From: a virus
Taxonomy: Duplodnaviria; Heunggongvirae; Uroviricota; Caudoviricetes
DNA: 41,579 nt
Reading direction: 5' to 3' (one strand)
Virus record (IMG/VR): IMGVR_UViG_2545824709_000014
Within the stretch, counting starts at the first letter, position 1; the number at the start of each line of letters is the position of its first letter. Positions 40-35,411 of the stretch are shown piece by piece. The notes under the pieces were generated by a model. That model did not search any database, was not told the origin of the DNA, and worked only from the letters and a program-made list of their open reading frames with translations. A program made the translations under genes and the position numbers.

Positions 40-402
40 GGGGCTGATTCTGGATTCGACGGGATTTGCGAAACCCAAGGTGCATGCCGAGGGGCGGTTG
101 GCCTCGTAAAAAGCCGCAAAAAATAGTCGCAAACGACGAAAACTACGCTTTAGCAGCTTAATAACCTGCTTAGAGCCCTCTCTCCCTAGCCTCCGCTCTT
201 AGGACGGGGATCAAGAGAGGTCAAACCCAAAAGAGATCGCGTGGAAGCCCTGCCTGGGGTTGAAGCGTTAAAACTTAATCAGGCTAGTTTGTTAGTGGCG
301 TGTCCGTCCGCAGCTGGCAAGCGAATGTAAAGACTGACTAAGCATGTAGTACCGAGGATGTAGGAATTTCGGACGCGGGTTCAACTCCCGCCAGCTCCAC
401 CA
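40..402 (+). ncRNA. ssrA: tmRNA (SsrA), 363 nt, ending in CCA
   Basis: Begins GGGGCTGATTCTGGATTCGACGGG and ends ...GTTCAACTCCCGCCAGCTCCACCA; contains the tag-reading-frame region; matches the E. coli tmRNA as I recall it. Confidence 0.93.
358..402. repeat. att core, left copy (3' end of ssrA)
   Basis: 45 bp ATGTAGGAATTTCGGACGCGGGTTCAACTCCCGCCAGCTCCACCA, identical to 35367-35411. Confidence 0.85.
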
Positions 403-412
403 AATAAAACAA

Positions 413-444
413 GGGGTTACGTGAAAACGTAGCCCCTTTTTCTT
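413..444 (+). terminator. Rho-independent terminator after ssrA
   Basis: Hairpin GGGGTTACG-tgaaaa-CGTAGCCCC followed by TTTTTCTTT. Confidence 0.7.
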
Positions 445-447
445 TGG

Positions 448-470
448 TAGTGGCGGCAAAATGGCGATAG
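448..470. repeat. GGCGGCAA / ATGGCG motifs about 50 bp inside the left att core (possible Int arm-type sites)
   Basis: tagtGGCGGCAAaATGGCGatag; related ATGGCGGCAAC motifs recur at 35226-35276 inside the right end. Confidence 0.3.
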
Positions 471-575
471 CTATGGACTAGGGTTGGGTCCACCCACATT
501 GCCCTCTATCCTTATGAGTGATCGCACACACGCCTCTACTTTCAAGCTATATTCTAATCTCAATATGAGGCTACT

Positions 576-1289
576 ATGGACTTCAACCTGAACAAAAAAA
601 TGCCAGTTAATAGATATCTTGTGATAATAGTTTTTGTCCTTTTCATCTTAGCCTGTATGCAGTTTATTTATCTTTGCCTTCGTTCATTAAGCATTGCCCC
701 AAACTATACGGGAACTGTAAGTGACATTATAATAGCTACAACAAATATTATTTTAGCTACCTACGCCGTTCGTGCATTCAAAAACTTATTTAAAGATAAA
801 CTATCCGATAATGCCATTAGTAAAATAGATACAGCATTGATGTCTCTCGATGATTGCATAGATAGTTTTTCAAGCTTATTTTTAAATATGACACTTATTA
901 AGATTTATAAAAACACTAATAACCCCAAGGACCCTCAGTTAGTTAAACAGCTCGATGAAGCAGCAAAAAACATTGAAAAAGCAACAAGTTCAGCCTACAA
1001 GGCAAGATCTATAATTGACTCATTAACTCGTTGGAATATAAGCTTAAACACAGAAAAAGGAATAAGACTAAACCAACTTACCGCTGATGTTTTTGAGTTA
1101 GGCATGCAGGCAACAAATATGTATATCGCACTAATAAATGAAATAAACCCTAACTCCCCATACAACTCTTTAACTCATAGACCATTTGATGAGTTATTTA
1201 ACGAATTTAATGAAGAAAGGATCAGAGTTGAAGACGAAAGCAATGAATTAAAAGAGTTCTCTATTCATGAAATATTTAAAATCAAATAA
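576..1289 (+). CDS. Hypothetical membrane-anchored protein (two N-terminal hydrophobic helices plus a soluble domain of about 170 aa); AT-rich cargo gene
   Basis: 237 aa ORF with GAGG 6-9 nt upstream of ATG; hydrophobic segments LVIIVFVLFILACMQFIYLCL and IIIATTNIILATYAV; AT-rich codon usage unlike the flanking phage genes; no family recognised. Confidence 0.6.
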   Translation: MDFNLNKKMPVNRYLVIIVFVLFILACMQFIYLCLRSLSIAPNYTGTVSDIIIATTNIILATYAVRAFKNLFKDKLSDNAISKIDTALMSLDDCIDSFSSLFLNMTLIKIYKNTNNPKDPQLVKQLDEAAKNIEKATSSAYKARSIIDSLTRWNISLNTEKGIRLNQLTADVFELGMQATNMYIALINEINPNSPYNSLTHRPFDELFNEFNEERIRVEDESNELKEFSIHEIFKIK

Positions 1290-1364
1290 GTTATTATAGA
1301 ATAATTTTAAAAAATCATTTGCATTCTTCTTGTGTCAAAAATCAAATAACTGTCTCGATATTAT

Positions 1365-1387: not shown

Positions 1388-1391
1388 AGTA

Positions 1392-1607
1392 TCAGTAAAC
1401 TAATTGCTCCTGCATCCCTTTGGGATGCGGTGGGGCGGCACTGATTTTCTCGGGACGACAAACAGAACGAACAAAGGTTTCATGCGTTACAAATGTATGC
1501 CCACACTCAATATTAGTGCACTGATTGTAACGCTCTTTGGTTTGAGAGGAGACTTGAAAACTACTGCGAGTATGTGCGGCCTGACCACACAACGGACAAT
1601 TCATCAT
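1392..1607 (-). CDS. ogr: Late-gene transcription activator Ogr (C4 zinc finger)
   Basis: 71 aa; CPLCG...CTNIECGHTF matches P2 Ogr (CPLC...C..C); position next to D and the att end as in P2. Confidence 0.85.
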   Translation of the reverse strand: MMNCPLCGQAAHTRSSFQVSSQTKERYNQCTNIECGHTFVTHETFVRSVCRPEKISAAPPHPKGMQEQLVY

Positions 1608-6200: not shown

Positions 6201-6332
6201 CTTTAATGCGTCACGGGAGTTTCTGATTGCGCCAGCCAGCTCTTTCGAACTGGCCTGTGCAGCACGGAATGGGCGGGTGAGTTTGTCAACCGCATTAAGA
6301 ATGACCTGCAGGCGCAGGTTGTTATCACTCAT
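3255..6332 (-). CDS. T: Tail tape measure protein T
   Basis: 1025 aa; Ala/Gly-rich with coiled-coil N-terminus and hydrophobic repeat segments; immediately downstream of E/E'. Confidence 0.85.
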   Translation of the reverse strand: MSDNNLRLQVILNAVDKLTRPFRAAQASSKELAGAIRNSRDALKQLNQVGNSLEKFRKLQADNKKLGDRLNYARQKANLLSSELEAMEQPSQRHLVALGRQTLAVQRLEEQQKYLQKQTALVRAELYRAGISAKDDAGATARLARETSRYNQELSKQEARLKRLGEAQRRMNAARASYARSLEVRDRIAGAGATTTAAGLAMGAPVMAAVKSYTSMEDAMKGVAKQVNGLRDDNGNRTARFYEMQDAIKAASEQLPMENGAVDFAALVEGGARMNVANPDDSWEDQKRDLLAFASTAAKAATAFELPADELSESLGKIAQLYKIPTRNIEQLGDALNYLDDNAMSKGADIIDVMQRLGGVADRLDYRKAAALGSTFLTLGAAPEVAASAANAMVRELSIATMQSKSFFEGMNLLKLNPEVIEKQMTKDAMGTIQRVLEKVNALPQDKRLSAMTMLFGKEFGDDAAKLANNLPELQRQLKLTAGNDALGSMQKESDINKDSLSAQWLLVKTGAQNTFSSLGETLRQPLMDILYTVKSITGALRRWVEANPELTGTLMKVAAVVAAVTVGLGTLAVALAAVLGPLAVIRLGFSVLGIKTLPSVTAAVTRTSSALSWLAGAPLALLRRGLASSGNAAGLLTAPLSSLRRTALLTGNVLKTVAGAPIALLRSGLSGLRAVAVMFMNPLAVLRGGLAAAGTVLRVLASGPLAMLRVALYAVSGLLGALLSPIGLVVTALAGVALVVWKYWQPITAFLGGVVEGFKAAAGPVSEAFEPLKPVFQWIGDKVQALWGWFTDLLTPVKSTSVELQSAAAMGRRFGEALAEGLNMVMHPLDSLKSGVSWLLEKLGIVSKEVAKAKLPESVTRQQPATVNADGKVMMPSGGFPSWGYGFAGMYDSGGYIPRGQFGIVGENGPEIVNGPANVTSRRNTAALAAVVTGMMGVAAAPAELPPLHPLALPAKGGEAIVSRAATVPPVYRIEAPTQIIIQTQPGQSAQDIAREVARQLDERERRLKAKARSNYSDQGGYDA

Positions 6333-6761
6333 CGTTGGCCCCGCATCTCTGAATCGCTTTATACCGCCATTCCAGCACTTCGGTCAGCGGCATAACGTCA
6401 GTAACGGATGGCGGCCAGTGAAAAATGGTGGCGATATCTGCCACCAGATCGTCAACCGTCAGGCTGTCGGTAAACCGGCAAGCACCGACTTCTTCAACAA
6501 AAAAGTGACAACCTCAACCGACATGGCTGTGAGATCTGCCGGGTCCATCTCTGCGATTTCCTGTGCAGTCAGTGCCGGACTGGAGATGCGGGGGATCACG
6601 GTCATCATCGCGTTCACATCCATATCCATAATGGCCTGCAGGCGTGTGCCGCGCAGCGCACCAGACTGCGGTTTACGCAACACAATTTCGGTAATTTCTG
6701 TTTTACCGCGCATGATGGGGGTATCCAGTTGAATGGTCTTTTCAGTCTGTTTATCGCTCAT
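6325..6761 (-). CDS. E+E': E+E' (-1 programmed frameshift product)
   Basis: Hand translation of the -1 frame from the slip site stays open to a TGA at about 6325-6327, overlapping the T start; same arrangement as P2 E/E+E'. Confidence 0.6.
6459..6761 (-). CDS. E: Tail assembly chaperone E
   Basis: 100 aa ORF between FII and T; contains slippery heptamer T_TTT_TTG near its 3' end. Confidence 0.75.
   Translation of the reverse strand: MSDKQTEKTIQLDTPIMRGKTEITEIVLRKPQSGALRGTRLQAIMDMDVNAMMTVIPRISSPALTAQEIAEMDPADLTAMSVEVVTFLLKKSVLAGLPTA
6498..6504 (-). other. Programmed -1 ribosomal frameshift site (T_TTT_TTG)
   Basis: Minus-strand heptamer TTTTTTG in E frame ACT TTT TTG; canonical P2-family E/E' slippery site. 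Confidence 0.65.
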
Positions 6762-6815
6762 TTTGTTGTCCTGTAAATTAGGTTCTGGCGCGGCATTCCG
6801 CGCCGTTCAGATACA

Positions 6816-7331
6816 TCAAAGGCCGAGGGCGTTGCGGTGCGCTTCCATCAGGTCCACACCGTCCACAATTTCCACCATGTTGATAAGGTCCACTTCATAG
6901 AGCACCTCACCATTGATGGTCAGCTTCGCGTAGCTGTTGGTACTGGTCACTTTGGTGGTGTTGCTTTCGCCCGTCTTCCACTCGCCGGAATCCACTTCTT
7001 TGTGACGTCCACGCACGACAAGCTCCACGGCCTGCACTTCCCCGGTATCGTCACGCTGGATAGAGCCGGTAAAGCGCAGCTGGATGCCATCCACCGTGGA
7101 TTTGCCCATCTGCTTAAACAGCAGCAGTTCAGTACCACCAATGGAAAATTCTGTATCCAGTGCACTGTCATCCAGTCCCAGATCCACATCCACCGCCCCC
7201 GGCATACCGCCGCCGCGATACTTCTCATATTTGCGGGTGAATTTCGGCAGCGTCAGCGACTCAACGATCCCCTGCCAGTTGTTCCCGTCGTTAAACAAGT
7301 TCAGATGTTTTAATTTACGTGGTAAAGCCAT
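6816..7331 (-). CDS. FII: Tail tube protein FII
   Basis: 171 aa; synteny FI-FII-E; size as P2 gpFII. Confidence 0.8.
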   Translation of the reverse strand: MALPRKLKHLNLFNDGNNWQGIVESLTLPKFTRKYEKYRGGGMPGAVDVDLGLDDSALDTEFSIGGTELLLFKQMGKSTVDGIQLRFTGSIQRDDTGEVQAVELVVRGRHKEVDSGEWKTGESNTTKVTSTNSYAKLTINGEVLYEVDLINMVEIVDGVDLMEAHRNALGL

Positions 7332-7340
7332 GTTGTCCCC

Positions 7341-8513
7341 TTACGCGCTGACCTGGCTGGCGAAATTCACCAGGTACTGATCGGTGATGCGCTGGCGCAG
7401 CATCAGATTTTCAAGTGGCGGCACTGGCGTGTAGTCGTAGTCGATGGTGAGTTTTCCGGCTTTAAGCGTGTCTTTGTCGTTCACCGACTCGTCCAGCCAG
7501 CAATCACCACCAATGAGATAGCCCTGACTGACCAGGTTGCGCATTTTGGCGCGGATACCTTCGATAATATCGCGGGCCAGCGACGGGTTAAGCGGTTTAT
7601 CCACCGCCCACATGTGTGCTTCTGCCATCGTGTCCATCAGCACCTGCGCCGTGCGGGTGTAGTTTTCGAAGACAAAGAGCGGGTCATCACTCAGGCAGCG
7701 GGAACCCCAGAAGCGGAAACCGTCTTTACGCACAAGCGTGGTGACGTCGTTCTGGTTAAGCAGTCCCGCATCAGTTGCCGGGTCCTGCAGATCCCAGAAC
7801 ACATCAGCAGAAATTCCGGTGACACCGTTCACGCCCACGTTGGACAGGCTTTTGTGCCATCCGGTCTGCTCATCAATTTTGGCGCGCAGACCGAGCGCAC
7901 GGGCGGTGGCATAAGCCGTTGCTTCGGCATTCAGCACCGTGTCCCAGCCAGTAAAGTCGGGCCAGATCAGCATTCCTTCACGCTGACTGAAGTTTTTACG
8001 GTAAGTGATTGCTTCCTGCACCGTCTTGCAACCATACGCTGACAGGTAAGCAAACCCACGCAGGCTTTGCGCCACGCTCAGCAACTCAGTAGCTACCGCC
8101 TTCGTGTCGTGACCTGGCACGCCGAGAATGCGCGGTTTAACGCCGAGCTGTGACTGGGCAGATAACAGGGCTTTCATGCCTGTTTTTTTACCTTCAGCAG
8201 TCACTGCGCCGATGATATTGGTCGTGGTTTCTTCTTCCGTTTCACCCTGCGGCACACGCACAACAACGGTCACGGGTTTTGCCTGGTCAGCGATGGCGTC
8301 CAGCGAACGGGCCAGCGTACCGGACTCACCCGCTTTACCGCTGGCAGTCAGCACATCAGTGATCAGCACGGGTTTATTAAGAGGAAACATTTTTGCATCG
8401 GCATCATCGCCCGTGCAGACCATACCCACGATGGCGGTGCTCACCGTGGTAATGGATCGGGTGCCTTCGTTGACTTCAACAACGCGCACCCCGTGGTGGT
8501 AATCCTGAGCCAT
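7341..8513 (-). CDS. FI: Contractile tail sheath protein FI
   Basis: 390 aa; position and size as P2 gpFI. Confidence 0.85.
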
Positions 8514-8589
8514 AGTGGCGAACCTCCTGATTGGATTAGGCTTCGCCCTATGTTGAAGTGATTGTGTCTGACAAGCAGCTAAGCGCAGT

Positions 8590-8607
8590 TGTACCGTTAT
8601 TCACACA
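8590..8607. promoter_or_regulatory. TGT-N12-ACA dyad (Ogr-type late promoter box) upstream of the FI operon
   Basis: TGTACCGTTATTCACACA between G and FI. Confidence 0.5.
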
Positions 8608-8619
8608 AAATGACGGTAT

Positions 8620-9033
8620 TTATCTGCTTGCAGGGAAAACAGGCCAAATAATATCAGGTGCGGTGCTGGTATCTGTTGCCGTCACAGCCTCGATATAATC
8701 CAGCACAACGTTAAGTCGGGTAGTTTCTTCTTGCGTCAGTTTGCGCCCGGCCTGCAGCTTTAACTGAATCACGCTGATATTGACCATTGCTGCGTCTAAC
8801 AGCGACTGTTTTTTCTGTTCAGCGTCAGCTACCAGTTCATCATGAGAACGTTCCGGAGTGGGTGGCGCAGTAAATCCCCCGTCTGAATACACCCAGCCGA
8901 TTCCGGGCTGCTCACTGATATCAGAAATATTAATGAGCTGCTGATTATCCGGCACTGTGAATTCAGCCTCGCCATCCCAGACAATGACATTCACAACCAT
9001 CCCATTTTCAATAACTGCATATGACGCATTCAT
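8620..9033 (-). CDS. G: Tail fiber assembly protein G
   Basis: Downstream of H; start placed at the internal ATG that overlaps the H stop (TAATG); ORF track alternative start is 9057. Confidence 0.65.
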   Translation of the reverse strand: MNASYAVIENGMVVNVIVWDGEAEFTVPDNQQLINISDISEQPGIGWVYSDGGFTAPPTPERSHDELVADAEQKKQSLLDAAMVNISVIQLKLQAGRKLTQEETTRLNVVLDYIEAVTATDTSTAPDIIWPVFPASR

Positions 9034-10952
9034 TATGCAAGCTCCTCGATAATACAAATTCCAGCAGCACCTTTCCCGCCCGTCATATTAGTTCCGCTAT
9101 AACCGGCATCGTATGCACCACCGCCACCTGAACCATATGCCTTACCGCTAACACCACCGCCAGCGCCTGCGCGTCCACCGCCTCCCCAGTACGATGCACC
9201 GCCTTTACCGCTGACGCCGATATTCCCGGACTGACCGTCGCCTCCATCTCCACCAGTGATGCGGGTATCGCCAATATTCGGTACGCCTCCGTAACCACCG
9301 TTTGTGTTTGTGATTCCTGGTTTTCCGGCACCTTCACCTCCTGGAGCAATTAACGATGAGAACGAGCTATCACCTCCCTTGTAACCCACTGACGCACCGA
9401 CACCGCCTCCACCGCCTGCACCGATAACGACAGGATAACTATTCTCTGTCAGGGTCATTGTTGAAATAATTGTTCCACCTGCTCCACCGCCTGCACCAAA
9501 AAACGTTTCGTTACTGGATGCTGCTTTGCATCCGCCCCCTCCGCCACCGCCGCCCGTTATTGTGACCCTGATCCGTTTTGTTCCTGGTGTCGGGGTGTAC
9601 GTACCTGATGACGTGAAAACCCGGGTATTCACCAAGCGTCCCACGTATCCGTTTGTAGCTCCCAAACCAAGATAATGAATAACCTCCTGTTTGCTTGTTT
9701 TAGCCAGAATATCCCGTCCAACATTAGTCAGGGTTGTCAGGCTGGCTGTATCATTCCCCGTAAAATACGGTAGTTTGTCTGCCGCAGTGGCAAGGCCTGC
9801 CAGTGCGGTCAGTGTGGCGTCGGCAGGTTGTTTTCCATTGGCAAGGTCATATACAGCCTTCACGGCTTTTGGTGTGGCAGCCTGCGTTTCTGACGTGCTG
9901 TTAGTGGCGCTGCTGAGTTGCACGGTGCCTTTTACCGTCAGTGAAGCTGCAGGCACATCCGTTATCTGGCTCCATGGGTGCGTGTGACTGACAGGTGCCT
10001 TACCTGCTGCAAGGTCATATGCCGCCTTCACTGCCTTTGGAGTGGCAGCCTGCGTTTCTGACGTGCTGTTAGTGGCGCTGCTGAGTTGCACGGTGCCTTT
10101 TACCGTCAGTGAAGCTGCAGGCACATCCGTTATCTGATTCCACGGGTGTGTGTGACTGACAGGAGCCTTACCTGCTGCAAGGTCATATGCCGCCTTCACT
10201 GCCTTTGGAGTGGCAGCCTGCGTTTCTGATGTGCTGTTAGTGGCGCTGCTGAGTTGCACAGTGCCTTTTACCGTCAGCGAGGCTGCAGGTACACCTGTTA
10301 TCTGATTCCACGGGTGTGTGTGACTGGCGGATGCTTTACCTGCTGCAAGATCATATGCAGCCTTTACAGCCTTCGGTGTTGCGGCCAGTATTTCGGATTC
10401 ACTGTTGGTCGCACTGCTTAACTGAGTAAAACCTTTTGCGGTCAGCGAGGCGTCCGGGTGACGTCGTGACTGTTCGTGCTCTGATATTTTGTCATCCACA
10501 TACTTGCGGGTTGCCAGCACTACGGCAGGGTCAATTTTCAGGGTGATATTGTCCATACTGCTGGTAATCAGCACCATGCGCACGGTCTGGGTGCGCCCGC
10601 TGCCTTCAGCCAGTTGCGGCTTATAGCTTTCCGGGCAGTTGCCCACGGCAATTAGTGCCCCGGATTCATCAAACAGGCCCACTTCACGTATCCACCAACC
10701 GCCCTCGTTTTCAGGGATCACCTGTTCAGCAATAATCTGGCTGCTGTTTTGCGGGTCGATATAGAGCATATTCAGCGCAGCCCGGCGTTTCTCATTTACC
10801 AGTGCCGTCTGCTTTGCGTCCGGCGTTGGCAATACTCCGCCGCCATCGCCCACCGCCATATGGGTAATTTTTAGCGGCACACCGAGCGCGGCGGCGCTGG
10901 CAAGTTTCGCCGCGCCAATATCCGTCAGCAGGGTATAAAATTTTGTGCTCAT
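9033..10952 (-). CDS. H: Tail fiber protein H with internal 56-aa tandem repeats and a glycine-rich C-terminal module
   Basis: 639 aa; conserved N-terminus MSTKFYTLLTDIGAAKLA...; repeats of AATPKAVKAAYDLAAGKAPVSHTHPWNQITDVPAASLTVKGTVQLSSATNSTSETQ; C-terminus with poly-Gly motifs. Confidence 0.85.
   Translation of the reverse strand: MSTKFYTLLTDIGAAKLASAAALGVPLKITHMAVGDGGGVLPTPDAKQTALVNEKRRAALNMLYIDPQNSSQIIAEQVIPENEGGWWIREVGLFDESGALIAVGNCPESYKPQLAEGSGRTQTVRMVLITSSMDNITLKIDPAVVLATRKYVDDKISEHEQSRRHPDASLTAKGFTQLSSATNSESEILAATPKAVKAAYDLAAGKASASHTHPWNQITGVPAASLTVKGTVQLSSATNSTSETQAATPKAVKAAYDLAAGKAPVSHTHPWNQITDVPAASLTVKGTVQLSSATNSTSETQAATPKAVKAAYDLAAGKAPVSHTHPWSQITDVPAASLTVKGTVQLSSATNSTSETQAATPKAVKAVYDLANGKQPADATLTALAGLATAADKLPYFTGNDTASLTTLTNVGRDILAKTSKQEVIHYLGLGATNGYVGRLVNTRVFTSSGTYTPTPGTKRIRVTITGGGGGGGGCKAASSNETFFGAGGGAGGTIISTMTLTENSYPVVIGAGGGGGVGASVGYKGGDSSFSSLIAPGGEGAGKPGITNTNGGYGGVPNIGDTRITGGDGGDGQSGNIGVSGKGGASYWGGGGRAGAGGGVSGKAYGSGGGGAYDAGYSGTNMTGGKGAAGICIIEELA
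9830..10440. repeat. Tandem 168-bp repeats (about 3.6 copies) inside H
   Basis: Near-identical units starting at about 9830, 9998, 10166 and 10334; the two middle copies are almost identical. Confidence 0.8.
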
Positions 10953-25707: not shown

Positions 25708-25726
25708 CTCGTATCCCCGCCACGCC
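25708..25726 (-). other. Candidate cos (cohesive end) site
   Basis: Minus strand reads GGCGTGGCGGGGATACGAG; the first 13 nt match the GGCG(A/T)GGCGGGGA start of the P2/186 cohesive ends as I recall them. Confidence 0.35.
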
Positions 25727-25930: not shown

Positions 25931-26164
25931 TTAATGCAACCAGCTGTCGTCTTCCCACACTTTCTGCATAATTTTCATCACTTGTTTTCTTTCTTCGTCC
26001 AGTTGCAGTCCGGTAAGTTCCACACCGTTAGAGCTACCTTTGCGGATACGAATTACCGTTTTTGGATATAGGGGGTGCAGGTTGCGGTAAAGCTCGGACT
26101 CCAGAGCGTCCAGGGTAGACTGGCTAATCTTCTGCTCTTTATCGATCATTATTTCAATGCGCAT
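25931..26164 (-). CDS. DinI-like protein
   Basis: From the internal Met: MRIEIMIDKEQKIS...VWEDDSWLH resembles DinI (MRIEVTIAK...WESADDW); GAGGTGA SD upstream of that ATG; ORF track start is 26236. Confidence 0.65.
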   Translation of the reverse strand: MRIEIMIDKEQKISQSTLDALESELYRNLHPLYPKTVIRIRKGSSNGVELTGLQLDEERKQVMKIMQKVWEDDSWLH

Positions 26165-26174
26165 AAAAGTCACC

Positions 26175-26363
26175 TCAGCTGATGACATCCATTGAGCGGT
26201 TGTATTCGTGGGTTCTGATTTTTGCCATGAGTTCATCTGTTAGTTCAGAAACCCACTGCAAAGCCAGCCCCTTCTCTTCATCACTACACTCACTAGCCGC
26301 TACAAGCTTAAGAAAAAAATCAATGCGCTGGAGCTTCAAAGACTCCAAAAAATAATCCTGCAT
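26175..26363 (-). CDS. Small hypothetical protein, first gene of the putative SOS-controlled operon
   Basis: 62 aa ORF immediately downstream of the LexA-box-like dyad and upstream of the DinI-like gene. Confidence 0.45.
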   Translation of the reverse strand: MQDYFLESLKLQRIDFFLKLVAASECSDEEKGLALQWVSELTDELMAKIRTHEYNRSMDVIS

Positions 26364-26405
26364 CTTTCCTCCTATGACACCAAAGCAATACTGTATACAT
26401 AACCA

Positions 26406-26421
26406 CTGTTTATATTTACAG
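26406..26421. promoter_or_regulatory. LexA (SOS) box-like dyad CTGT-N8-ACAG
   Basis: caCTGTttatatttACAGta, with a second TACTGTATAC half-site just upstream; sits before the 62-aa/DinI-like operon. Confidence 0.55.
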
Positions 26422-26515
26422 TATATAATAATCTTACTGATGTAAAACGTTTTTTTACGTTCATCAGCCTGATATGCCTGGTATTATTAAGAGCACGAAT
26501 TGTTAACCCGCGTAA

Positions 26516-28930
26516 TTAATACAGATCCCGCCACTTATCATCTTCCTGCAAACGCTGGTTCCGATAGAAGATACGCAGGCCTGCTCCTGACGGAATACTG
26601 CCGCCGCGAAGGAGTAAATCGACCTCTTTCTCGCTACCATCAAATCCTCTGGACTTCAGCTCATAGACGAGCTGCTGTCGCTGATGGTCTGTAATTCGCT
26701 GTTTGTAGTCTTTACGACGTTTCGGTTTCACCAGGCGTAACCTTGCAGCCAGTTCCCGGCGCTCTTTTTTGCTCATACTGTGCAGGTAATCGTGCAACTC
26801 CTTGTCATCCATGCGGGTAATGTCCGTTCTGGTATCCCCATCAGCTGATTTGTCTTTCCCTTGTTGGTTCAAATTTTCAGCAAGGGGACAGTTATTGCCA
26901 CGAGTCCAAGGGGCGCAAGCGCCCTGGTCGGCTGCCGCCTCCTGAACGTCAACGGCTTTACGAACCATTTTCCACTTCACTGCATGAGTGCAGATCTTGC
27001 CCTCTGCAATGGGTGACCAGATGCCATAAATACGAATACCGTGATCGCCATAGGCGGTCGGCTCTTCGTTGATTTCATAAGCGGTTCTGATGAGGTGATA
27101 TTTACGGGGAACCAGTACGCCGCCCTGCTTCATGATGTAGGTAGCAAAACAACCAGCATCAGCAGCAGCCAGAATGGCATCAAGACGCGGGTTATCCAGT
27201 ACTGGCGCACCTGCTTTTTTGTCACCCTGTTGCCTTGCCACCTGACCAGCCAGCAAGCGAAGTTCACGGTAAGCCTGACGTCCCGGAATACCAAAGAAGC
27301 GGAATTGCTGTACACGATGCAGAGACGCCCAGGCATTAACGTATTCAGCGTTATCACACAAGGATTTACCCGTTTCCTTACTGATCTCGCCAGCCAGACC
27401 ACGCCCGTCAATGTTCTTACTGATGTATTTCGCGATGTAGCTTGTCGGCGTTCCTTTGCGCGGGTTTATCAGCTCAGACTTAAAGCGTGGCTCCGTGTTA
27501 TTGCCCAGCTCCTCGCGGTCTTCACGGATGGCAAACTTACGCAGTAATGCAGTGATGGCGCGGCGGTCTTTTTTGCGCATGAAACACAATAGGTGCCAGT
27601 GAACGGTGCCGTCATGATGAGGCTCAGCCACCCGCACGCCATACCAGCGCAACCCGGCTTTATGCATAGCCTTACGAAATGCAGCAAACATGCCGACCAG
27701 ATAATCGCTGCTTTGTCTTACCGTCGCATTTGTCCAGGTCGGGTTGGGCCTGCCGTTATTTAGCGTGGAATGGAAACGTGACGGACAGGTGATGGTGTAG
27801 AAAACGGCGCAGTCACCGCGCATTTCCGCGATAAGCTCCAGACCTTTAACACAGGCCATCATCTCATTGCGGCGATGCGCAGGATTGCTGCTGCTGGCGT
27901 TTACCACATCCTCCATGTCCAGCGTGTCGCCGTCTTCGTTCACCAGTTCATGAGAACGGAAAAACTCTAGTGACTTGCGGCGCTGCTCACGTTTATGCAT
28001 CACGGCTTCATAGCTAACATAGGGAGATGCTTTTTTGCTGACCAGGCAGACAGCACGCAACTGCTCTTCCCGCCATTCGCAACGCATCTTCCATAATTTC
28101 CGATACCACCAGTCGGCGCACAACATACGCGCCAGCGAACCCGGAATGAGTTCATAGGGCACGGGTTTGCGGCGGTTTCTTTTCCGACGAAGTTGCTCAA
28201 ACGCAGGCGGTATGACATCCAGTCGCAGGGTTTCCGCTGCTACCTTTTCCCATGTCTTGCGGATTTCTTCTGGCTTAACATCATCGGTGGCATACAAATC
28301 GCCACAAGCTGCATCAAGGCACATGCTCATATGCGCAGCTACCAGGGTGGACAGGCGTTTTACCTGATCCTGACTCATTTCAGGCAGAATCAGCAGGCCG
28401 TCCAGCCCTTCATGGCTTGCCATAAAGCGAAAAGAAGTGGATAGCTGACTGTCGCGTACATGCTCCAGCCGTTCCAGACATGGCTTAATCGTCTTACGCA
28501 AATAGCGGGAATAAGCCTTTGGCCTGCCCAGGCTGCTGAAGTATTCAATACGTTGCATCAGCGGCTTGCTGATATGGGAAGGCTGGGCGTTAACGTCCGC
28601 CAGAATGACCATGTCTGGATTAAAACGCTGCTGCTCATGCGCCAGCTTTGCCCGGCTAATGAGCTTATCCTGCTCCATTTCGCGTTGGACAGGATCACGG
28701 GATTCATTAAAGAAATAACGCTCCCAGACCTGATCACTCAGTGCCTCGCGGCGCAGCTGTTCCTGCTCGTTATCGGTAGCGTACAGAGTGATCAGGTTTG
28801 AAAGCGCAGAAACCGGCGCAACTTCCGCCGGGTCCAGATAAGGGTTAATAACCTTTTTCGGGCTGTTCCATGAGAATGCTGCGGCGACCTCGTTAACGCC
28901 GCTGCAATTGTTCATATCGGCATGACTCAT
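26516..28930 (-). CDS. A: Replication initiation (rolling-circle nicking) protein A
   Basis: 804 aa; [12 protein letters not shown] active-site tyrosine motif typical of the P2 gpA family. Confidence 0.8.
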
Positions 28931-29784
28931 GCACGTACTCCGTACACGGCAGAACTATCCACGCCACGCGAATAATCAAATCCCACCCAGCAGCGCGGCC
29001 CGGAAACAGCAATGATTTCTGTTGCTGATTTACCCTCGCCAGCTGCCACACCGATGCTGCGTTTTACCTTGATATAGTGGTGAGTAAAATTGCGATACAG
29101 CGAACGGATCAGGGATGTGTCACTGTTAGAAACAATGACCGGATGTCCTTCTGATGACCGATGTTCAAGAACGGATGCAAGGTGATACTGGTCATCTTCT
29201 GTGAAACCGTCAGTGTGATAACCGGAAAACGTACCGTCATACGGCGGATCGCAATACACCACATCCCCCGCCTTCAACATCGCCAGCGTTTCATCAAAGC
29301 TGGCGCAGATAAACGTTGCCCGCTGGGCTTTTTCTGCAAATGCGCGAATTTCTTTTTCAGGGAAATACGGATTTTTATAATTACCGTAGGGAATGTTGAA
29401 ATGCCCGCTCTTGTTATAGCGACATAAACCACGGTAACCGTGACGATTGAGATACAGGAAATATACCGCTTTCATGAAATCAGTAATTTCAGTTGAGTAA
29501 TTAAACTCCTGCCTTATGTTGTAATAAGCCACCTCCCTGTTTGCGATCTCAAATAAAACTCTGGCGCGAGATATAAACGATTCACAATCAGCAGCAACCT
29601 TTTTATAGAGGTTGATTAAATCAGGATTAATATCCGCAACAAGATAGCTGGGGTACTCCGTCTCCATCATCACTGCACAGGAACCCGCGAAAGGTTCAAC
29701 CAGTCGCGGGCCAGCAGGAAGGTGTTTTTTCAGTTCGGACATAATTGCGGTTTTATTTCCCGCCCATTTCAGGATGGTGCTCAT
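28927..29784 (-). CDS. dam: DNA N6-adenine methyltransferase (Dam-like)
   Basis: N-terminal LKWAGNK, catalytic DPPY and FAGSCAV SAM-binding-like motifs; start placed at the internal Met overlapping the upstream stop (ATGA); ORF track start is 29844. Confidence 0.75.
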
Positions 29785-30008
29785 ACAGCACCTCCGTTGT
29801 AATGTTTGCCTTTCAGCTCTGCGATTTCCTGACAGGTAATGCAAAGCTGCACTCCAGGAATGGCGCGGCGGCGTGCTGGCGGAATTGGCACTTCACATTC
29901 AATGCAAAGCACGCGAGACACGCCCGGTGTTTTGACACGGGCAGCACGAATATGGCGCTGGCGTTCTTCTTCAACGCGCTGCTGTACGAGATCCATTGCA
30001 TCAGCCAT
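29781..30008 (-). CDS. TraR/DksA-family C4 zinc-finger protein
   Basis: 75 aa; CIECEVPIP...CITCQ four-Cys motif; common in P2-like early regions. Confidence 0.65.
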   Translation of the reverse strand: MADAMDLVQQRVEEERQRHIRAARVKTPGVSRVLCIECEVPIPPARRRAIPGVQLCITCQEIAELKGKHYNGGAV

Positions 30009-30247
30009 TAGTGGATCTCCTGCGCTTCGTTCTGGATTGCTTCAGCGGTCACACGCAGCAGTTCTGCCGCTTCGACGTGGTTTAGCTGGTGGGATGTGAT
30101 ATGACACGCAAGACTATCAAGGCGGGCAGCCATTGCTTCAGCCCTTGCCCGGCGTTCTTCCAGACGAGCCTCTGTCAGTAAAATATTTAGCCCTACGTCA
30201 TCCGGTCCGGTTTTAGTCGTGAGGGTTTCAATATTACGCATAATCAA
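30008..30247 (-). CDS. Hypothetical phage early protein
   Basis: 79 aa ORF in the early operon; no family recognised. Confidence 0.4.
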   Translation of the reverse strand: MIMRNIETLTTKTGPDDVGLNILLTEARLEERRARAEAMAARLDSLACHITSHQLNHVEAAELLRVTAEAIQNEAQEIH

Positions 30248-30308
30248 TTCTCCTGAATTTAGATAAAGGGATGCCCGGCGGGTTTACGCCATTAATTTCA
30301 TTAGTTGG

Positions 30309-30650
30309 TTAATTCGGCATGGTTAGCCGTCTGGGAAATAAGCTCACCACTGCACGAAAATGATTCATTGCTTTAATCAACTCCCGCTTTTCGTCAGTGG
30401 TCAGCTCATTAATGCTGATGCTATGACGTTCAGCTGGAATTTTTGCCATAAAGAATATGGCAGCCAGTGCCCGTTTATTTTGTTCGCTATTAATATCCCG
30501 TGGATCACGCATATCTTTAATAAACCGTTCAAGCTCTGACTCAATATTAAGACCAAAAACTTTCGCCCTTAACTCCGCAATATGATTAAGTCCATTCAGG
30601 CGTTCACCGGGGCTTAATGGAACAGTCGCCGCAGCGCCTTCAATAGCCAT
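30309..30650 (-). CDS. Hypothetical phage early protein
   Basis: 113 aa ORF downstream of cII; no family recognised. Confidence 0.4.
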   Translation of the reverse strand: MAIEGAAATVPLSPGERLNGLNHIAELRAKVFGLNIESELERFIKDMRDPRDINSEQNKRALAAIFFMAKIPAERHSISINELTTDEKRELIKAMNHFRAVVSLFPRRLTMPN

Positions 30651-30844
30651 TTGTTCCCCCGTTTTTTCGTAGATAGTTCTGCCAGCAATTCATCTTGTGA
30701 ACGGCACGGATGCCAGCGTTTACCATCCTCACCCATGATCCAGCCGTGACCGTAGTGCATTGCCGGGCTTTGTTTAACCAGCAGCGATGCAAATGATGGT
30801 TCTTTCGTAAGCATAAGCACCTCACAGCAAACCGAATGAAGCAC
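30614..30844 (-). CDS. Hypothetical phage early protein (position of 186 fil)
   Basis: 76 aa ORF overlapping the cII stop; competes with the alternative frame 30640-30825. Confidence 0.3.
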   Translation of the reverse strand: MLHSVCCEVLMLTKEPSFASLLVKQSPAMHYGHGWIMGEDGKRWHPCRSQDELLAELSTKKRGNKWLLKALRRLFH

Positions 30845-31331
30845 CGAGGCCAGTCACGGTATCAACTGCACTCGCCATCGCAGGGTTAGCCTGTAAACGG
30901 GCCTGCAGTGAAACAGCAGCCAGCGCCATCAGTCGTGTTACAGAGTTAATGCTGCTGATAGCATCACGACGACCTGCACTGGTTTTTACATCGCCAGATA
31001 CCGCACCTGCAGCAACACGCCCGATCTCTGCGGTTGCACTCATAACGTAATGCGGCAGTTTCTCTTTTGCTACCTCATTAATCGGTACACATGGCAGGCA
31101 GTGAATCTGTGCCAGAAAACCATCTATCAGCGTTGAATCTTCAGTCAGATCGGTAAGCAGCCAGATTTCTGGCGCATTGAGCTGATGCGGTTGATCTGGG
31201 TTGAGTTTGTTTCGCAGAGTCTGGACATTCATTCCTGCACGTTCTGCCAACTTCGCCATATTGTGACGAAGTGCAAAAGCTCTACAGGCTTCATCAAAAT
31301 GCGGGTGTTTGGAAATCTTATAATCAAACAT
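30822..31331 (-). CDS. cII: CII-like lysogeny establishment regulator (186 type)
   Basis: 169 aa, same length and position as 186 CII; HTH-like N-terminal region. Confidence 0.65.
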   Translation of the reverse strand: MFDYKISKHPHFDEACRAFALRHNMAKLAERAGMNVQTLRNKLNPDQPHQLNAPEIWLLTDLTEDSTLIDGFLAQIHCLPCVPINEVAKEKLPHYVMSATAEIGRVAAGAVSGDVKTSAGRRDAISSINSVTRLMALAAVSLQARLQANPAMASAVDTVTGLGASFGLL

Positions 31332-31363
31332 GCTACCCCCTTAGAAAGTTCTCATAATTGAAC

Positions 31364-31606
31364 TCACTTACCAACAATGACGCGGAAGTTGGAATGACCG
31401 AGGGATTCACGGACCTGATCGGTTTTGTACATTAAATAACGCAGACTTACGCGGCCTTTGTTTTTTTCTTTCTTGACCATGTATTTAGCAAGCTGACCAT
31501 GGTGAATTTTTTGATACACGGAGCCGCGGGAGATACCTTCCCATTCCGCGAACTCTGCAGGCGTAGCCATCTCTTTTGGTACACGAATTGAAATATCAGT
31601 GCTCAT
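31364..31606 (-). CDS. apl: Apl/Cox-like excisionase / transcriptional repressor
   Basis: 80 aa HTH protein divergent from cI, first gene of the lytic operon. Confidence 0.65.
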   Translation of the reverse strand: MSTDISIRVPKEMATPAEFAEWEGISRGSVYQKIHHGQLAKYMVKKEKNKGRVSLRYLMYKTDQVRESLGHSNFRVIVGK

Positions 31607-31708: not shown

Positions 31709-31725
31709 GTCAACAGGATTAAAAA

Positions 31726-32358
31726 ATGATACAGGTAAAGGCTGGAGAGAATACAGGGGGAAGAGAGGCTATCCATAGACTAATGGCAGCCTATGATTTC
31801 AAGTCCAGACAGCAACTTTGCGATCACTTAGGCGCATCAAAAAGCACCATGGCAAACAGATACTTAAGAGATAGTTTTCCTGCAGAGTGGGTGATTCAGT
31901 GCGCCTTGGAAACAGGAGTTTCTTTACTGTGGCTAACCACCGGACAGGGAGAGCCAGGTCCAAACATTGAACCTAAAAAAAATATCAATTCCGTGAACTC
32001 CAGCAAGGTTGTACCTCTTTCTGAACTAGTATCTCCTGAAATTGACAAGGCGACTCTCAACGGTGGTTTATTGGTCGATGCTGGAAAAGCAATCATTGAT
32101 AGCAGCATACTCCCCTCAGACTCAAGCAACCTACTGCTGGTGACTACTTCTGGTGATTCTTATTTAATAGATCGCAACCAAACACCACCAGTAAATGGTA
32201 TGTGGTTAGTCGATATCGACGGGATAAAAAGCATTGTTAAATTGACTCGGCTCCCGGGAAACAAATTAGTAGTGCATCAGGATGATTCATCGTTTGAGTG
32301 CGGTCTGGATGACATTGAGGTAGTAGGCCGCGCACTGAAAATCATTAAGAGCCTTTGA
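31726..32358 (+). CDS. cI: CI immunity repressor (186 type)
   Basis: 210 aa; N-terminal HTH region resembles 186 CI; immediately followed by int. Confidence 0.7.
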   Translation: MIQVKAGENTGGREAIHRLMAAYDFKSRQQLCDHLGASKSTMANRYLRDSFPAEWVIQCALETGVSLLWLTTGQGEPGPNIEPKKNINSVNSSKVVPLSELVSPEIDKATLNGGLLVDAGKAIIDSSILPSDSSNLLLVTTSGDSYLIDRNQTPPVNGMWLVDIDGIKSIVKLTRLPGNKLVVHQDDSSFECGLDDIEVVGRALKIIKSL

Positions 32359-32359
32359 T

Positions 32360-33373
32360 ATGACCATCAGAAAACAGCCGAACGGAAAATGGTTGTGTGA
32401 GTGCTATCCCAATGGACGCAATGGCAAGCGCGTGCGTAAGCAATTTGCTACGAAAGGCGAAGCCATTGCGTTTGAAAGCTTCACAATGGAAGAAGTGAAT
32501 AAAAAACCGTGGTTGGGTGAAAAGGATGATCGGCGACGCCTATCAGAATTAATTGAGCTTTGGTATTCCCTGTATGGTCAAACACTCGCAGACCCCAAGC
32601 GCCTCATGGCGAAACTTAGAATTATCTGTAATGGTCTAGGCGATCCCATCGCCTCAGAACTGACAGCTGGTGACTTTACAAAATACCGCGAAGCACGGTT
32701 AAAAGGTGAAATACGAAATGAAGATGGCACGCTTATGTCGCCCGTAAAGCCCCGCACGGTAAACCTTGAACAGCGCAATCTATCATCTGTGTTCGGTACA
32801 TTAAAAAAACTAGGACACTGGTCAGCACCAAACCCGCTGGCAGGACTTCCGACCTTCAAAATTGCCGAAGGTGAGCTGGCTTTTCTTTCCACGGACGAAA
32901 TCAAGCGCCTGTTGGCGGCATGTGCTGAATCTCAAAACCCTAGCTTACTAATGATTGCAAAAATATGCCTAGCTACTGGCGCACGGTGGAGTGAAGCCGA
33001 AAATCTGCAGGGCCACCAAATATCGAAATACCGAATTACTTATACAAAAACAAAAGGCAAGAAAAACAGAACAGTACCCATATCACAGGAGCTGTATGAC
33101 GAACTCCCAAAGAACAGAGGGAAGTTATTCTCACCATGTAGAAAAGCCTTTGAACGAGCAGTAAAACGGGCAGGTATAGATCTACCGGATGGCCAATGCA
33201 CCCACGTGCTGCGACATACGTTTGCTAGCCACTTTATGATGAATGGCGGGAACATACTTGTGCTAAGGGATATTTTGGGACATTCGGATATCAAGATGAC
33301 CATGGTTTACTCACATTTCTCACCAGATCATCTTGAAGATGCCGTTACTAAGAACCCATTAAACTTGATATAA
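32360..33373 (+). CDS. int: Tyrosine integrase (P2/186 family)
   Basis: 337 aa; C-terminal HVLRHTFASHFMMNGG...LGHSDIKMTMVYSHF with catalytic R, H-x-x-R and Y. Confidence 0.85.
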   Translation: MTIRKQPNGKWLCECYPNGRNGKRVRKQFATKGEAIAFESFTMEEVNKKPWLGEKDDRRRLSELIELWYSLYGQTLADPKRLMAKLRIICNGLGDPIASELTAGDFTKYREARLKGEIRNEDGTLMSPVKPRTVNLEQRNLSSVFGTLKKLGHWSAPNPLAGLPTFKIAEGELAFLSTDEIKRLLAACAESQNPSLLMIAKICLATGARWSEAENLQGHQISKYRITYTKTKGKKNRTVPISQELYDELPKNRGKLFSPCRKAFERAVKRAGIDLPDGQCTHVLRHTFASHFMMNGGNILVLRDILGHSDIKMTMVYSHFSPDHLEDAVTKNPLNLI

Positions 33374-33386
33374 AACAGCCAAAATT

Positions 33387-35144
33387 CTATTTCATCAAGT
33401 AATCCAATTCATCCTTCATAGGTATAACTTGCTCATAAAGTCTATGGTAGGATTTTCCAATTGCACCCCTAAATTGAATAAGTTTAGGGGAAAAGCTACC
33501 GATATTAATAATATGTTCTTGCGCTATACCAGGATATGGATCGATAAAAATAATCTCTGTCATACCTAACTGATAAGCTTTTTTAGCACAAAGTTCACAA
33601 GGGCTAGCTGTAGTATATAGTTTCCCTCCATTAATACCGACCCCACCATATTTGGCCAATTGCAAAAAAGCATTCTCCTCTGCGTGCAATGCACGGGTAT
33701 GCACTTGATTCCCTTTCTTTTCATCATCAAGGCTGTTGTGAATATCTTTAAAACAATATGGCAAATTAAGTCCTTTAAAAACAGTAGAACTTGAATCACT
33801 CGCCCTTATTTTTATTAAATTTTCTTTAACTTTACTCCTAAATTTTGTATTACTTCGTTCGTACAGGCTATATGTTCCCTCATCAAAATCATGCAATAAC
33901 CCATCAAATGACCTCATAGAACAAGGAACTTGACCTTTTGCTACATCGTTCCAACCAACTGACTTGATAGAGTTATCATTATCTGTCACAACCGCCCCTA
34001 CTTGCCTAGATATACATCCAGAATTTAGTTTTACAGTATATGCAACTTGCATAACCCTTTCCATGGCGGTAGGAGATATTAATCCAGGGTGTTGCATTAA
34101 TGATACATACCACGCAATTTGTGCTTTGAGAAAATTATTATTATCAAATTCTTTTTTAGGGTTAAAAAAATGTATATCTGAAATTTCAATGCATTTTTTT
34201 ACATTAGGATTAGTAAGATGATTATACTCGCCATCTCCTTTACCAGATTCTTCATCATTAATTTTTTTTATCTGTTCCTCTGAGAACTTATGTAATTTCT
34301 TTAAATATCTGGTTCGATGTTCATCTGGTGCATTTATAGAAACCAGATGGAATGCAGCATATCTATCTTTGAAGAATTTAGCTTCATACGGGTTACGTAT
34401 CGCATCAATGACTATATACGCTTTATTATTCTTTACTTTTCTAATTATTTTAATAACACGATTAATTGTTTCAGGTAAATGAAAAACAGCCTTTGGAATA
34501 AAGTCTTGATTTTCATAATCTACATCAACCTTCCCTATTCTTCTAATTGACTTTCCTGCTGACTGATATAGCTCAATATATAAACCTGGCTCTAGTTCAT
34601 TTAATTCCCTTTTAAAATCCCGTGTAAATTTTCGAGTAAGAGTTAATATCCTAATAAAGGTATCTTTCCCCCTGCCTTTAAAGTCAATCTCATCATCATG
34701 ATTAAGAAGATTTTTTATCACCTCAAGATATTTTATCTTCAACAAACTTTTAGCGAACACACCATTAACAACCAGTTTCTTGGCTGCCTTAAAGGAAATC
34801 GAATTTTCTTTTTTATCGGGGATTTTACTTGCAGAAAACTGAATGAATTTAGCTAAGGCCGATGGAGATAAAAGGAGCAAATATATTGAAATGAGATCAC
34901 TGACCTTTATCGAATAGAAGTTCTTCCAATGAGTCTCTGCAAAATTTTTTACTATTTCATAACGCCGCAAATCCAATCCTTTATAATACTCAGCCAAGAC
35001 GTTACTATCTGGAAAAGATATTTCTTTTTGTTCTAAAATATTTGCTGCAGTAGTACATCCTGAGCCAGTTCTCCCAGTTAAACCAATAAGAATAAATTGA
35101 CTATTTTCTAAAAAAAGCTCACTAATAAATTTGTGTTCTCTCAT
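33387..35144 (-). CDS. P-loop kinase-like domain fused to CMP/dCMP-type deaminase domain; candidate AvcD / defensive dCTP deaminase
   Basis: 585 aa; N-terminal P-loop GLTGRTGSGCTT; C-terminal zinc-deaminase signature HAEENA...SPCELC; AT-rich; lies between int and attR. Confidence 0.65.
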   Translation of the reverse strand: MREHKFISELFLENSQFILIGLTGRTGSGCTTAANILEQKEISFPDSNVLAEYYKGLDLRRYEIVKNFAETHWKNFYSIKVSDLISIYLLLLSPSALAKFIQFSASKIPDKKENSISFKAAKKLVVNGVFAKSLLKIKYLEVIKNLLNHDDEIDFKGRGKDTFIRILTLTRKFTRDFKRELNELEPGLYIELYQSAGKSIRRIGKVDVDYENQDFIPKAVFHLPETINRVIKIIRKVKNNKAYIVIDAIRNPYEAKFFKDRYAAFHLVSINAPDEHRTRYLKKLHKFSEEQIKKINDEESGKGDGEYNHLTNPNVKKCIEISDIHFFNPKKEFDNNNFLKAQIAWYVSLMQHPGLISPTAMERVMQVAYTVKLNSGCISRQVGAVVTDNDNSIKSVGWNDVAKGQVPCSMRSFDGLLHDFDEGTYSLYERSNTKFRSKVKENLIKIRASDSSSTVFKGLNLPYCFKDIHNSLDDEKKGNQVHTRALHAEENAFLQLAKYGGVGINGGKLYTTASPCELCAKKAYQLGMTEIIFIDPYPGIAQEHIINIGSFSPKLIQFRGAIGKSYHRLYEQVIPMKDELDYLMK

Positions 35145-35225
35145 TTCGCACCTGTTACGTTATAACACAAGTCTCTTCCATGTTGTATTTATTAGTATTT
35201 ATTAAAAAACAAGAAATTGCAACAT

Positions 35226-35276
35226 AGCGGCAACAATACACACACCAAGAAAATGGCGGCAACTTGGCGGCAGAGC
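35226..35276. repeat. Three GGCGGCA(A/G) motifs upstream of the deaminase gene and inside attR
   Basis: AGCGGCAAC, ATGGCGGCAAC and TTGGCGGCAGAG within 50 bp; related motifs occur at 448-470. Confidence 0.3.
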
Positions 35277-35366
35277 TTTAAAAACGTATAAAACGGATAA
35301 ACACAAAACAATACCAACCAACTGTTTTTGAAAACAAATTATTGTTTTCATTATAATATAAATGGT

Positions 35367-35411
35367 ATGTAGGAATTTCGGACGCGGGTTCAACTCCCGC
35401 CAGCTCCACCA
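35367..35411. repeat. att core, right copy (duplicated 3' end of ssrA)
   Basis: 45 bp identical to 358-402; followed by its own hairpin and T-run, then a P4-type integrase. Confidence 0.85.

Follow-up and report, generated by a model that had tools for sequence, protein, structure and literature searches.

Background

Tandem integration at the transfer-messenger RNA (tmRNA) gene, ssrA, is said to have been treated by Williams in 2003 under the title 'Traffic at the tmRNA gene', a paper that the Islander study cites. Among the integration targets in Islander the tmRNA gene shows the highest enrichment, and the catalogue lists 125 tandem arrays (PMC4383910); ssrA is also a listed site of Shiga-toxin (Stx) phages (PMC8065619). 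Here we describe an array of this kind in IMG/VR virus record IMGVR_UViG_2545824709_000014, a stretch of 41,579 nt on one strand (hereafter 'the window'), in which an intact ssrA is followed by a P2/186-class prophage and, directly to the right of the prophage, by a second element that opens with an integrase of the P4 family. A first-pass annotation had read the pair as a potential helper phage next to a P4-type satellite, each with its own defence cargo. We consider it very probable that the locus records two successive, independent integrations at ssrA, the first now reduced to the stump of an integrative mobilizable element and the second a complete prophage, and not a helper-satellite pair.

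Several described systems frame the comparison. The nearest to the prophage are Felsduovirus and other 186-like Peduoviridae, among them RE2010, Escherichia phage Cartapus and the Klebsiella prophages Kp48xx-2, with phage 186 itself as the reference for the lysis-lysogeny switch. P2 phages have a cos-proximal hotspot between gpA and gpQ (Rousset et al., PMC9122126), and their slot between int and att is a minor hotspot that holds about 3% of P2 systems (PMC13586616). P4-like satellites are defined by seven core components, of which types A, B and C hold 7, 6 and 5, respectively (PMC8628076). Finally, a receiver and kinase-like gene pair of the sort found in the second element has been described as a two-component-like, paraMORC-related module tied to C5 methylases, without experimental data, in which 83% of kinase family members carry a MORC-type ATPase domain (PMC8011034).

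Results and Discussion

Precise insertion of a prophage at ssrA

ARAGORN finds one tmRNA gene in the window, intact at 40-402 on the plus strand with the tag ANDENYALAA, and the same gene is annotated as ssrA in strains 127 and PSJ-16. Its last 45 nt (358-402, the attL core) recur exactly, in the same orientation, at 35367-35411 (the attR core; repeat family D4 of the repeat finder). Identity between the two copies ends abruptly at either edge of the 45 bp, and dinucleotide-preserving shuffles of the window, used as a test of chance, gave 0 matches to the 26-nt 3' part of the core. The element bracketed by these copies occupies 403-35366 (34,964 bp). The right copy, a displaced 3' fragment of ssrA, is also the junction with the second element, whose 409-residue integrase gene (35577-36806) starts 165 bp further on. 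When window 1-402 was joined in silico to 35412-41579, the resulting 6,570 nt aligned over their full length and without gaps, at 99.89% identity, to an E. coli locus that has no prophage (L005); the insertion is therefore clean, with a 45-bp duplication.

The repeat-flanked prophage and the adjoining P4-family integrase are thus confirmed as real and not a product of chance, and the first-pass annotation was right that one 45-bp ssrA 3' core flanks the prophage on both sides. Its further statement, that the right copy doubles as the left att of a P4-type element, holds for the junction with a P4-family integrase and not for the type of the element, as set out below. By the rules that Islander applies to tDNA islands (PMC4383910), the prophage has an intact target and, in the same orientation, a displaced 3' fragment, with an integrase between the two, and the array as a whole resembles those catalogued there in having one integrase per element. 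It differs in that each Islander member needs a fragment of its own, and the stump's was not found within 26 kb downstream; because the stump has lost that fragment, only the prophage can be formally delimited as an island. A prophage beside a stump at ssrA is nonetheless an ordinary, recurrent and already described kind of tandem array.

Directly after the rebuilt ssrA the prophage supplies a strong hairpin resembling an intrinsic terminator (411-438, plus strand), with a 12-pair stem that includes 6 GC pairs and is followed by TTTCTTT. The ssrA-adjacent terminator-like hairpin after attR lies at 35461-35475.

An IS3-truncated element to the right

Beyond the displaced ssrA fragment lie four genes. 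The integrase (plus strand) is IntA-like, with the Pfam domains Arm-DNA-bind_3, Phage_int_M and Phage_integrase and a score of 440.6 bits against NCBIfam PRK09692 (cut-off 434); it is 34% identical to P4 Int and 48% identical to IntA of CP4-57 in E. coli K-12. It is followed by a gene for a 138-residue protein (36845-37261, plus strand; phrog_6556, function unknown), by a gene for a 582-residue Response_reg_2 receiver protein (37333-39081, minus strand) that is an open reading frame (ORF) throughout in the window and whose C-terminal signature was recognised by library search, and by the 3' 613 codons of a MORC/histidine-kinase-like gene (39083-40924, minus strand). The annotated kinase ORF, of 572 residues (39083-40801), begins at an internal Met. 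In tblastn, residues 376-988 of a 988-residue homologue, P0146, match window 40924-39086 at 99%, and the homology stops at 40924, which is where the terminal repeat of an IS3 copy starts (40923). The right edge of the window falls inside this copy (40923-41579, minus strand), which it cuts off.

Strain EC5502 shows what lies further on. It has the same stump layout, with an IS3 family transposase annotated at the same junction, and past the IS3 it rejoins the K-12 chromosome inside ygaQ, with ypjA, ypjB/C, ileY and the 5' part of ygaQ missing. Because it rejoins within ygaQ, the segment from ypjA to ileY is deleted, along with any right end of the island. A search of the 26 kb downstream in EC5502 for a third att copy, allowing up to 3 mismatches in the 45-mer and up to 2 in an 18-mer, returned the known copy only. 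All ten sampled genomic contexts of an identical integrase have the integrase, the 138-codon gene, the Response_reg_2 gene, the kinase-like ORF, IS3, a truncated amylase pseudogene and csiD/glaH, and the IS3 junction is identical in 10/10. We read the right-hand element as a 5.5-kb immobile stump of an integrative mobilizable element.

The intact form of the element can be seen in its relatives. Full-length homologues of the kinase, 99% identical, have 988 residues and an additional N-terminal HATPase_c_3 domain, and the contigs that encode them (from Salmonella enterica, Serratia liquefaciens and Klebsiella assemblies, each covering part of the extent of its element) carry the same integrase, 138-codon gene and receiver gene beside smpB/ssrA. 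Window 35367-40923 is collinear with, and 99.0% identical to, the integrase-proximal 5.56 kb of these elements, which run on past the receiver gene into the 988-codon gene and the C5 DNA methylase gene that overlaps it, and then into several small genes, a relaxase (PF03432) and a further pair of tyrosine recombinases. E. coli PSJ-16 has a complete element of this family, about 23 kb long, inserted between ssrA and ypjA (L027 15500-38995); its integrase is 96.6% identical to that of the stump, and it has a relaxase, recombinases, a different cargo and, at its far end, in the part that is lost from the stump, a Vis-like helix-turn-helix protein (41%). The window thus holds the integrase end of such an element, and the relaxase is found in the 99%-identical relatives and in PSJ-16.

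The PSJ-16 element has, next to its integrase, genes for a DUF6119 protein, for a radical-SAM system of the His-Xaa-Ser (Hxs) type and for an ABC-like system of three components. Since this cargo differs from that of the stump, the integrase-proximal region of these mobilizable elements is a variable cargo hotspot.

No satellite genes beside the prophage

An integrase of the P4 family next to a P2-like prophage invites the satellite reading, and a decayed P4-type satellite that lost psu-delta-sid, epsilon and alpha through the IS3-associated deletion would leave something superficially similar: an integrase with low-GC cargo directly behind it recalls the layout of the int-psu hotspot in P4-like satellites (PMC9122126, PMC8628076), and true P4 satellites do occur at ssrA in some E. 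coli (L004). We searched with all 14 P4 proteins (tblastn, E<=1e-3), using L004 as a positive control, in which every P4 gene was recovered at 90-100%. The right-hand element matched only Int, at 34%, and the 26 kb downstream in EC5502 matched none. Neither psu nor sid had a match in the window, downstream in EC5502, among the intact relatives (L018-L026) or in PSJ-16 (L027), as against 97-98% in the control; delta had none in the right-hand element, its sole match in the window being the ogr/B gene of the prophage at 1392-1607; alpha, epsilon (Ash) and alpA/vis had none in the window or in L001. The intact relatives, too, gave no P4 match beyond Int at 34%. Relatives that are 99% identical over the whole stump continue, as described, with a methylase, a relaxase and tyrosine recombinases, the complete PSJ-16 member has no psu, sid, delta, alpha or epsilon, and the genuine P4 at this site has another integrase, of 398 residues, and an ssrA remnant that is different and shorter. 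We regard descent from a P4 satellite as extremely improbable.

The satellite reading fails because the right-hand element lacks satellite genes and is essentially an integrase remnant, which is the outcome that the first-pass annotation had itself set against its proposal. The search that it had suggested to the right, for psu, delta, sid, alpha and a third att, came back empty when run in the 26 kb of EC5502. The array of two integrase-bearing elements in tandem at ssrA stands, then, without a satellite as its second member, and with it goes the pairing of helper and satellite. What the stump has in common with P4 satellites (PMC8628076) is an integrase of the same broad family with the same three domains at 34% identity, and low-GC cargo beside it; unlike them it lacks six of the 7 defining components in the window, and the relaxase of its intact relatives points to conjugative rather than capsid-mediated mobilisation. 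The 409-residue integrase is P4-like at family level only. It is important to note that a P4-family integrase by a P2-like prophage does not indicate a satellite, since many islands that are not satellites have integrases of this family.

The genuine P4 at ssrA (L004 1-9700, GCA_053102765.1; alpha 99%, sid 97%, delta 97%, psu 98%) has a 398-residue integrase that is not that of P4 and an AAA_21+HNH cargo, sits directly to the left of the same stump and leaves an imperfect ssrA remnant of about 20 bp, CAAACTCCGCCAGCCCACCA. Since a P4 of this kind uses a non-P4 integrase at ssrA, P4 backbones have swapped integrase modules to target this gene.

A proposed history of two integrations

We propose the following history. 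An integrative mobilizable element would have entered the 3' end of ssrA by means of its IntA-like tyrosine integrase of the P4 family. A deletion associated with IS3 would then have removed everything past codon 376 of the MORC/kinase-like gene, taking with it the C5 methylase, the relaxase, the additional recombinases, any right att and the chromosomal segment from ypjA to the 5' part of ygaQ, and the remaining stump (integrase, 138-codon gene, receiver gene and kinase fragment) would have been inherited vertically in what are now hundreds of strains. In a second event a complete Felsduovirus-like phage of the P2/186 class would have entered the still-intact ssrA with its own integrase; recombination between an attP carrying a 45-bp copy of the ssrA 3' end and attB would have rebuilt ssrA, added the phage terminator and displaced the original 3' fragment rightwards by 35 kb, still attached to the stump. 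On induction, judging by what is known of 186, DNA damage would lead to LexA cleavage, expression of Tum and inactivation of CI, whereupon Apl and Int would excise the prophage across the 45-bp cores and restore the ssrA-stump junction of prophage-free strains. This architecture rests on the sequence and on comparisons, and every activity in the mechanism is inferred.

The order of the two events follows from their distribution across genomes, for which stump first and prophage later and independently is the simplest history. The stump is present in about 553 of 5,426 complete E. coli genomes (~10%), with the identical IS3 junction noted above, and the tandem of this prophage type with the stump in at least 35 of them (chimeric query of prophage integrase and stump). 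Many of the best-matching genomes show the prophage-stump tandem with other hotspot cargo, and strain 127 has the same prophage without the stump. Elsewhere ssrA and the stump have nothing between them, or are separated by a lambdoid prophage (L011), an Stx phage, a genuine P4 or a P2-like phage.

Some points weigh against this account. The loss of the right part of the island was read from other genomes with the identical junction and not from the genome of the window. The order of events is drawn from distribution and is not dated, and both the inducibility of the prophage and the inactivity of the stump integrase are predictions. The far att of the PSJ-16 element was not found, there being no ssrA-derived repeat of at least 14 nt, and because of this the core sequence of the element family is undefined. 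Finally, the integrase and the 138-codon gene of the stump are intact in every copy examined, which could reflect recent common descent or some retained use.

Is the stump still a working unit?

The right-hand element could still function, either as a small defence island in which the receiver and the shortened kinase counter phages, perhaps expressed from IS3, or through an integrase kept for its action on the ssrA att sites of its neighbours. The integrase and the 138-codon gene, which accompanies the integrase in every stump and every intact element sampled, are indeed open in all copies, both cargo ORFs are open in the window, and the domain pair they encode is genomically tied to restriction-modification genes (PMC8011034). 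Against this, the kinase has lost its first 375 codons, including the MORC-type ATPase domain, along with the upstream methylase and the promoter region; PADLOC recognises no system in the stump cargo (no match for the kinase and 0.0028 only for the receiver, with NCBIfam giving generic kinase matches far below cut-offs); and no right-end att for the integrase to use was found in the 26 kb downstream in EC5502. The cargo is also decaying, with extra frameshift or nonsense mutations in the two genes in six of the 13 other stumps, all 13 of which keep the integrase and the 138-codon gene intact. The receiver gene has the same frameshift, with a stop at codon 533, in 4/13 copies (L001 22034-23784; L007, L011 and L012), and in 2/13 others (L010 and L013) the kinase remnant is broken further, by nonsense or frameshift mutations that arose independently. 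A working right-hand element is very unlikely on this evidence, and the immobile stump is preferred.

Membership of the described Response_reg_2/HEF_HK modules (PMC8011034) is a separate matter. As in those modules, receiver and kinase-like genes are adjacent in the window, and the intact relatives have HATPase_c_3, HEF_HK and HATPase_c together with an overlapping C5 methylase gene; unlike them, the window has neither the MORC-type domain nor the methylase. Both C-terminal signatures are present, the kinase is cut at codon 376 and HATPase_c_3 is gone, so that what the window holds is a fragment of a module member and not an intact one. The first-pass annotation had also credited the right-hand element with defence cargo of its own, a claim that is not supported: the pair is uncharacterised and absent from PADLOC, the kinase is cut by IS3 and the methylase is lost.

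In the intact relatives three genes make up an operon: the C5 DNA methylase gene, the 988-codon gene whose start the methylase gene overlaps, and finally the receiver gene (L018 8812-14717; L021 8833-14717). The C-terminal part of the receiver protein, some 400 residues, is confidently modelled and matches no solved fold. The operon of methylase, MORC-kinase and receiver is a candidate for an uncharacterised restriction-like system. It is tempting to speculate that it acts against phages or plasmids and that the stump persists in hundreds of E. coli lineages through a part that is still useful, for example an integrase that influences integration and excision at ssrA, or a receiver without its kinase; we think this combination improbable.

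A complete prophage with a 186-type switch

The left element was typed by tblastn with every annotated P2 and 186 protein, and by its gene content it reads as a complete Peduoviridae prophage, Felsduovirus-like and of the P2/186 class. It matches deposited P2-like phage records at 96% identity over 77% of its length. The late region (1676-22210) is collinear with the P2-type late gene set; counterparts from D through portal are near full length and 36-70% identical to both phages. On the minus strand it encodes D, U, tape measure, E, tube, sheath, tail fibre and its assembly, baseplate, tail completion, lysis, head completion, small terminase, capsid and scaffold, and on the plus strand the large terminase and portal. 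The capsid protein is 59-60% identical to P2 gpN and its 186 counterpart. To the left of these genes lies a zinc-finger late-gene activator of the ogr/B type (1392-1607, minus strand), annotated as ogr/Delta-like in strain 127 and 52% identical to 186 B, 42% to P2 Ogr and 44% to P4 delta.

The early and control region is that of 186 rather than P2. A Tum/DinI-like antirepressor operon (25931-26423 with its upstream LexA box, minus strand) encodes a product 41% identical to 186 Tum and recognised as DinI by NCBIfam and PHROG; the near-perfect LexA box, TACTGTAAATATAAACAGTG, at 26404-26423 stands ahead of the operon of small ORF and tum, as at 186 p95. The number of LexA boxes in the window is not significant alone, and it is the position of this one that fits. 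The early lytic operon (26516-31606, minus strand) encodes replication endonuclease A, a Dam methylase (PHROG methyltransferase), small ORFs, Fil, CII and Apl, with identities to 186 of 35% for A, 82% for Fil, 70% for CII and 30% for Apl. It is followed by a 186-type CI repressor (31726-32358, plus strand; Pfam Phage_CI_repr and Phage_CI_C) and the prophage integrase (32360-33373, plus strand; Pfam Int_N and Phage_integrase), whose identity is 95% with the integrase of the Felsduovirus Salmonella phage RE2010, 55% with 186 Int and 39% with P2 Int. With tblastn, nothing in the prophage corresponds to C, Cox, Tin, Old or Fun(Z) of P2. With homologues of CI, Apl, CII, Fil and Tum and a LexA box by the tum operon, we predict a 186-type lysis-lysogeny switch with LexA-controlled Tum. 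The prophage resembles Felsduovirus and the 186-like phages in this switch and its LexA box, in its P2-type order of virion and lysis genes and in its ogr/B activator; it differs from P2 and 186 in that its structural proteins are only 36-70% identical to theirs, and from 186 in that its att lies in ssrA and that of 186 in ileY.

Among the features that could bear on a helper role are an Ogr/B homologue, a P2-like capsid protein and a putative cos site. The cos-like sequence, GGCGTGGCGGGGATACGAG (25708-25726, minus strand), shares its first 13 nt with 186 cos; similarity to the cos region of 186 is 92% over 26 nt (E=1e-4), and 6 of the 19 positions differ from P2/P4 cos. Phage 186 can serve P4 as a helper, and P4 is not known to derepress a 186 prophage; if this holds, even a real satellite would meet the 186-type switch differently from the way it meets that of P2.

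It might be argued that the prophage is a defective remnant, merely bracketed by repeats, and no potential helper. Its inducibility is a prediction, and its holin, endolysin and tail-fibre assembly genes found no match among the P2 and 186 versions in tblastn; against that, other families fill these roles: the strain 127 copy, in which PGAP marks no pseudogene, is annotated with a holin of the HP1 family, a lysozyme, LysB/LysC and a protein for tail fibre assembly. All other essential P2/186 genes match near full length, and closely related genomes have been deposited as phages. A defective prophage is therefore unlikely, and the P2/186-type prophage that had been proposed at ssrA is borne out by its full late gene set and 186-type switch.

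Compared with the window, the strain 127 copy is 99.4-99.9% identical except over 6332-10250, where identity falls to about 96%, a stretch that takes in most of the tail-fibre gene with its repeats and suggests host-range variation. The gene (9033-10952, minus strand) contains three tandem copies of a 168-nt unit at 9841-10418, which are 84-95% identical over a 242-nt register.

Prophage cargo

Three cargo loci interrupt the prophage backbone, with GC contents of 0.32-0.38 as against 0.55 for the structural genes. The first is an overlapping pair of genes on the minus strand (22249-25516, GC 0.38) for IetS, an S8 peptidase, and IetA, an AAA ATPase, recognised by Pfam (Peptidase_S8 and AAA) and by PADLOC (IetS 1.8e-48, IetA 6.7e-84); adjacent as they are, they form an IetAS system. 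It occupies the cos-proximal gpA-gpQ hotspot (PMC9122126), and old/tin of P2 and orf97 of 186 lie on the opposite side of cos from it. The cos-like site falls between IetA and tum, which places IetAS between the portal gene and cos. The second locus, in the int-att slot, encodes an anti-phage dCTP deaminase (33387-35144, minus strand, GC 0.33), assigned by the NCBIfam equivalog NF041025 (420.5 bits, cut-off 400) and by PADLOC (dCTPase, 2e-146). The third, in the slot between attL and ogr, is a gene for a 237-residue protein (576-1289, plus strand) that is also present in strain 127 and has no match in Pfam, NCBIfam, PHROGs or PADLOC; because of its low GC content (0.32) it is probably acquired cargo in a further att-proximal slot.

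That the prophage brings defence cargo of its own was correctly anticipated, and the host gains two recognised systems from it. The combination of IetAS, dCTP deaminase and 237-residue protein beside the stump was not found in complete RefSeq E. coli genomes, the best of which covers at most 82% of the window from 21500 onward. Closest to the window are strain 127, with the same prophage and no stump, and EC5502, with the stump and other hotspot cargo.

Neighbours at ssrA and false boundaries

The locus illustrates clearly how elements build up at ssrA, where at least four kinds use nested parts of the 3' end; the fragments left by different elements measure 45, ~31 and ~20 bp, the last imperfect. 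CP4-57 of E. coli K-12 is comparable in that the stump, too, directly follows ssrA with an IntA-type integrase, but the two integrases are only 48% identical, there is no DNA similarity beyond ssrA, and CP4-57 keeps its right end and ypjA, both of which are deleted at the stump. The island of strain WGI31CT (H47) was considered as an IS3-free form; its region is rearranged, with an integrated plasmid and IS1 sequences, and was uninformative.

In the record of Stx prophage CP-1639 (AJ304858), a 92%-identical intA disrupted by IS629, likewise directly after ssrA, is annotated as 'remnant integrative element'. An old, IS3-truncated stump can also pass for part of a neighbouring phage. The record of Escherichia phage phi467, an Stx-converting lambdoid phage (LN997803.1), overruns its end into the stump (L029 33002-38226) and includes intA, the 138-codon gene, the receiver gene and the truncated kinase, annotated there as 'sasA'. 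This is a boundary error, of a kind that the stump probably causes in other prophage calls as well, making it a recurrent source of false boundaries for pipelines that annotate prophages and satellites.

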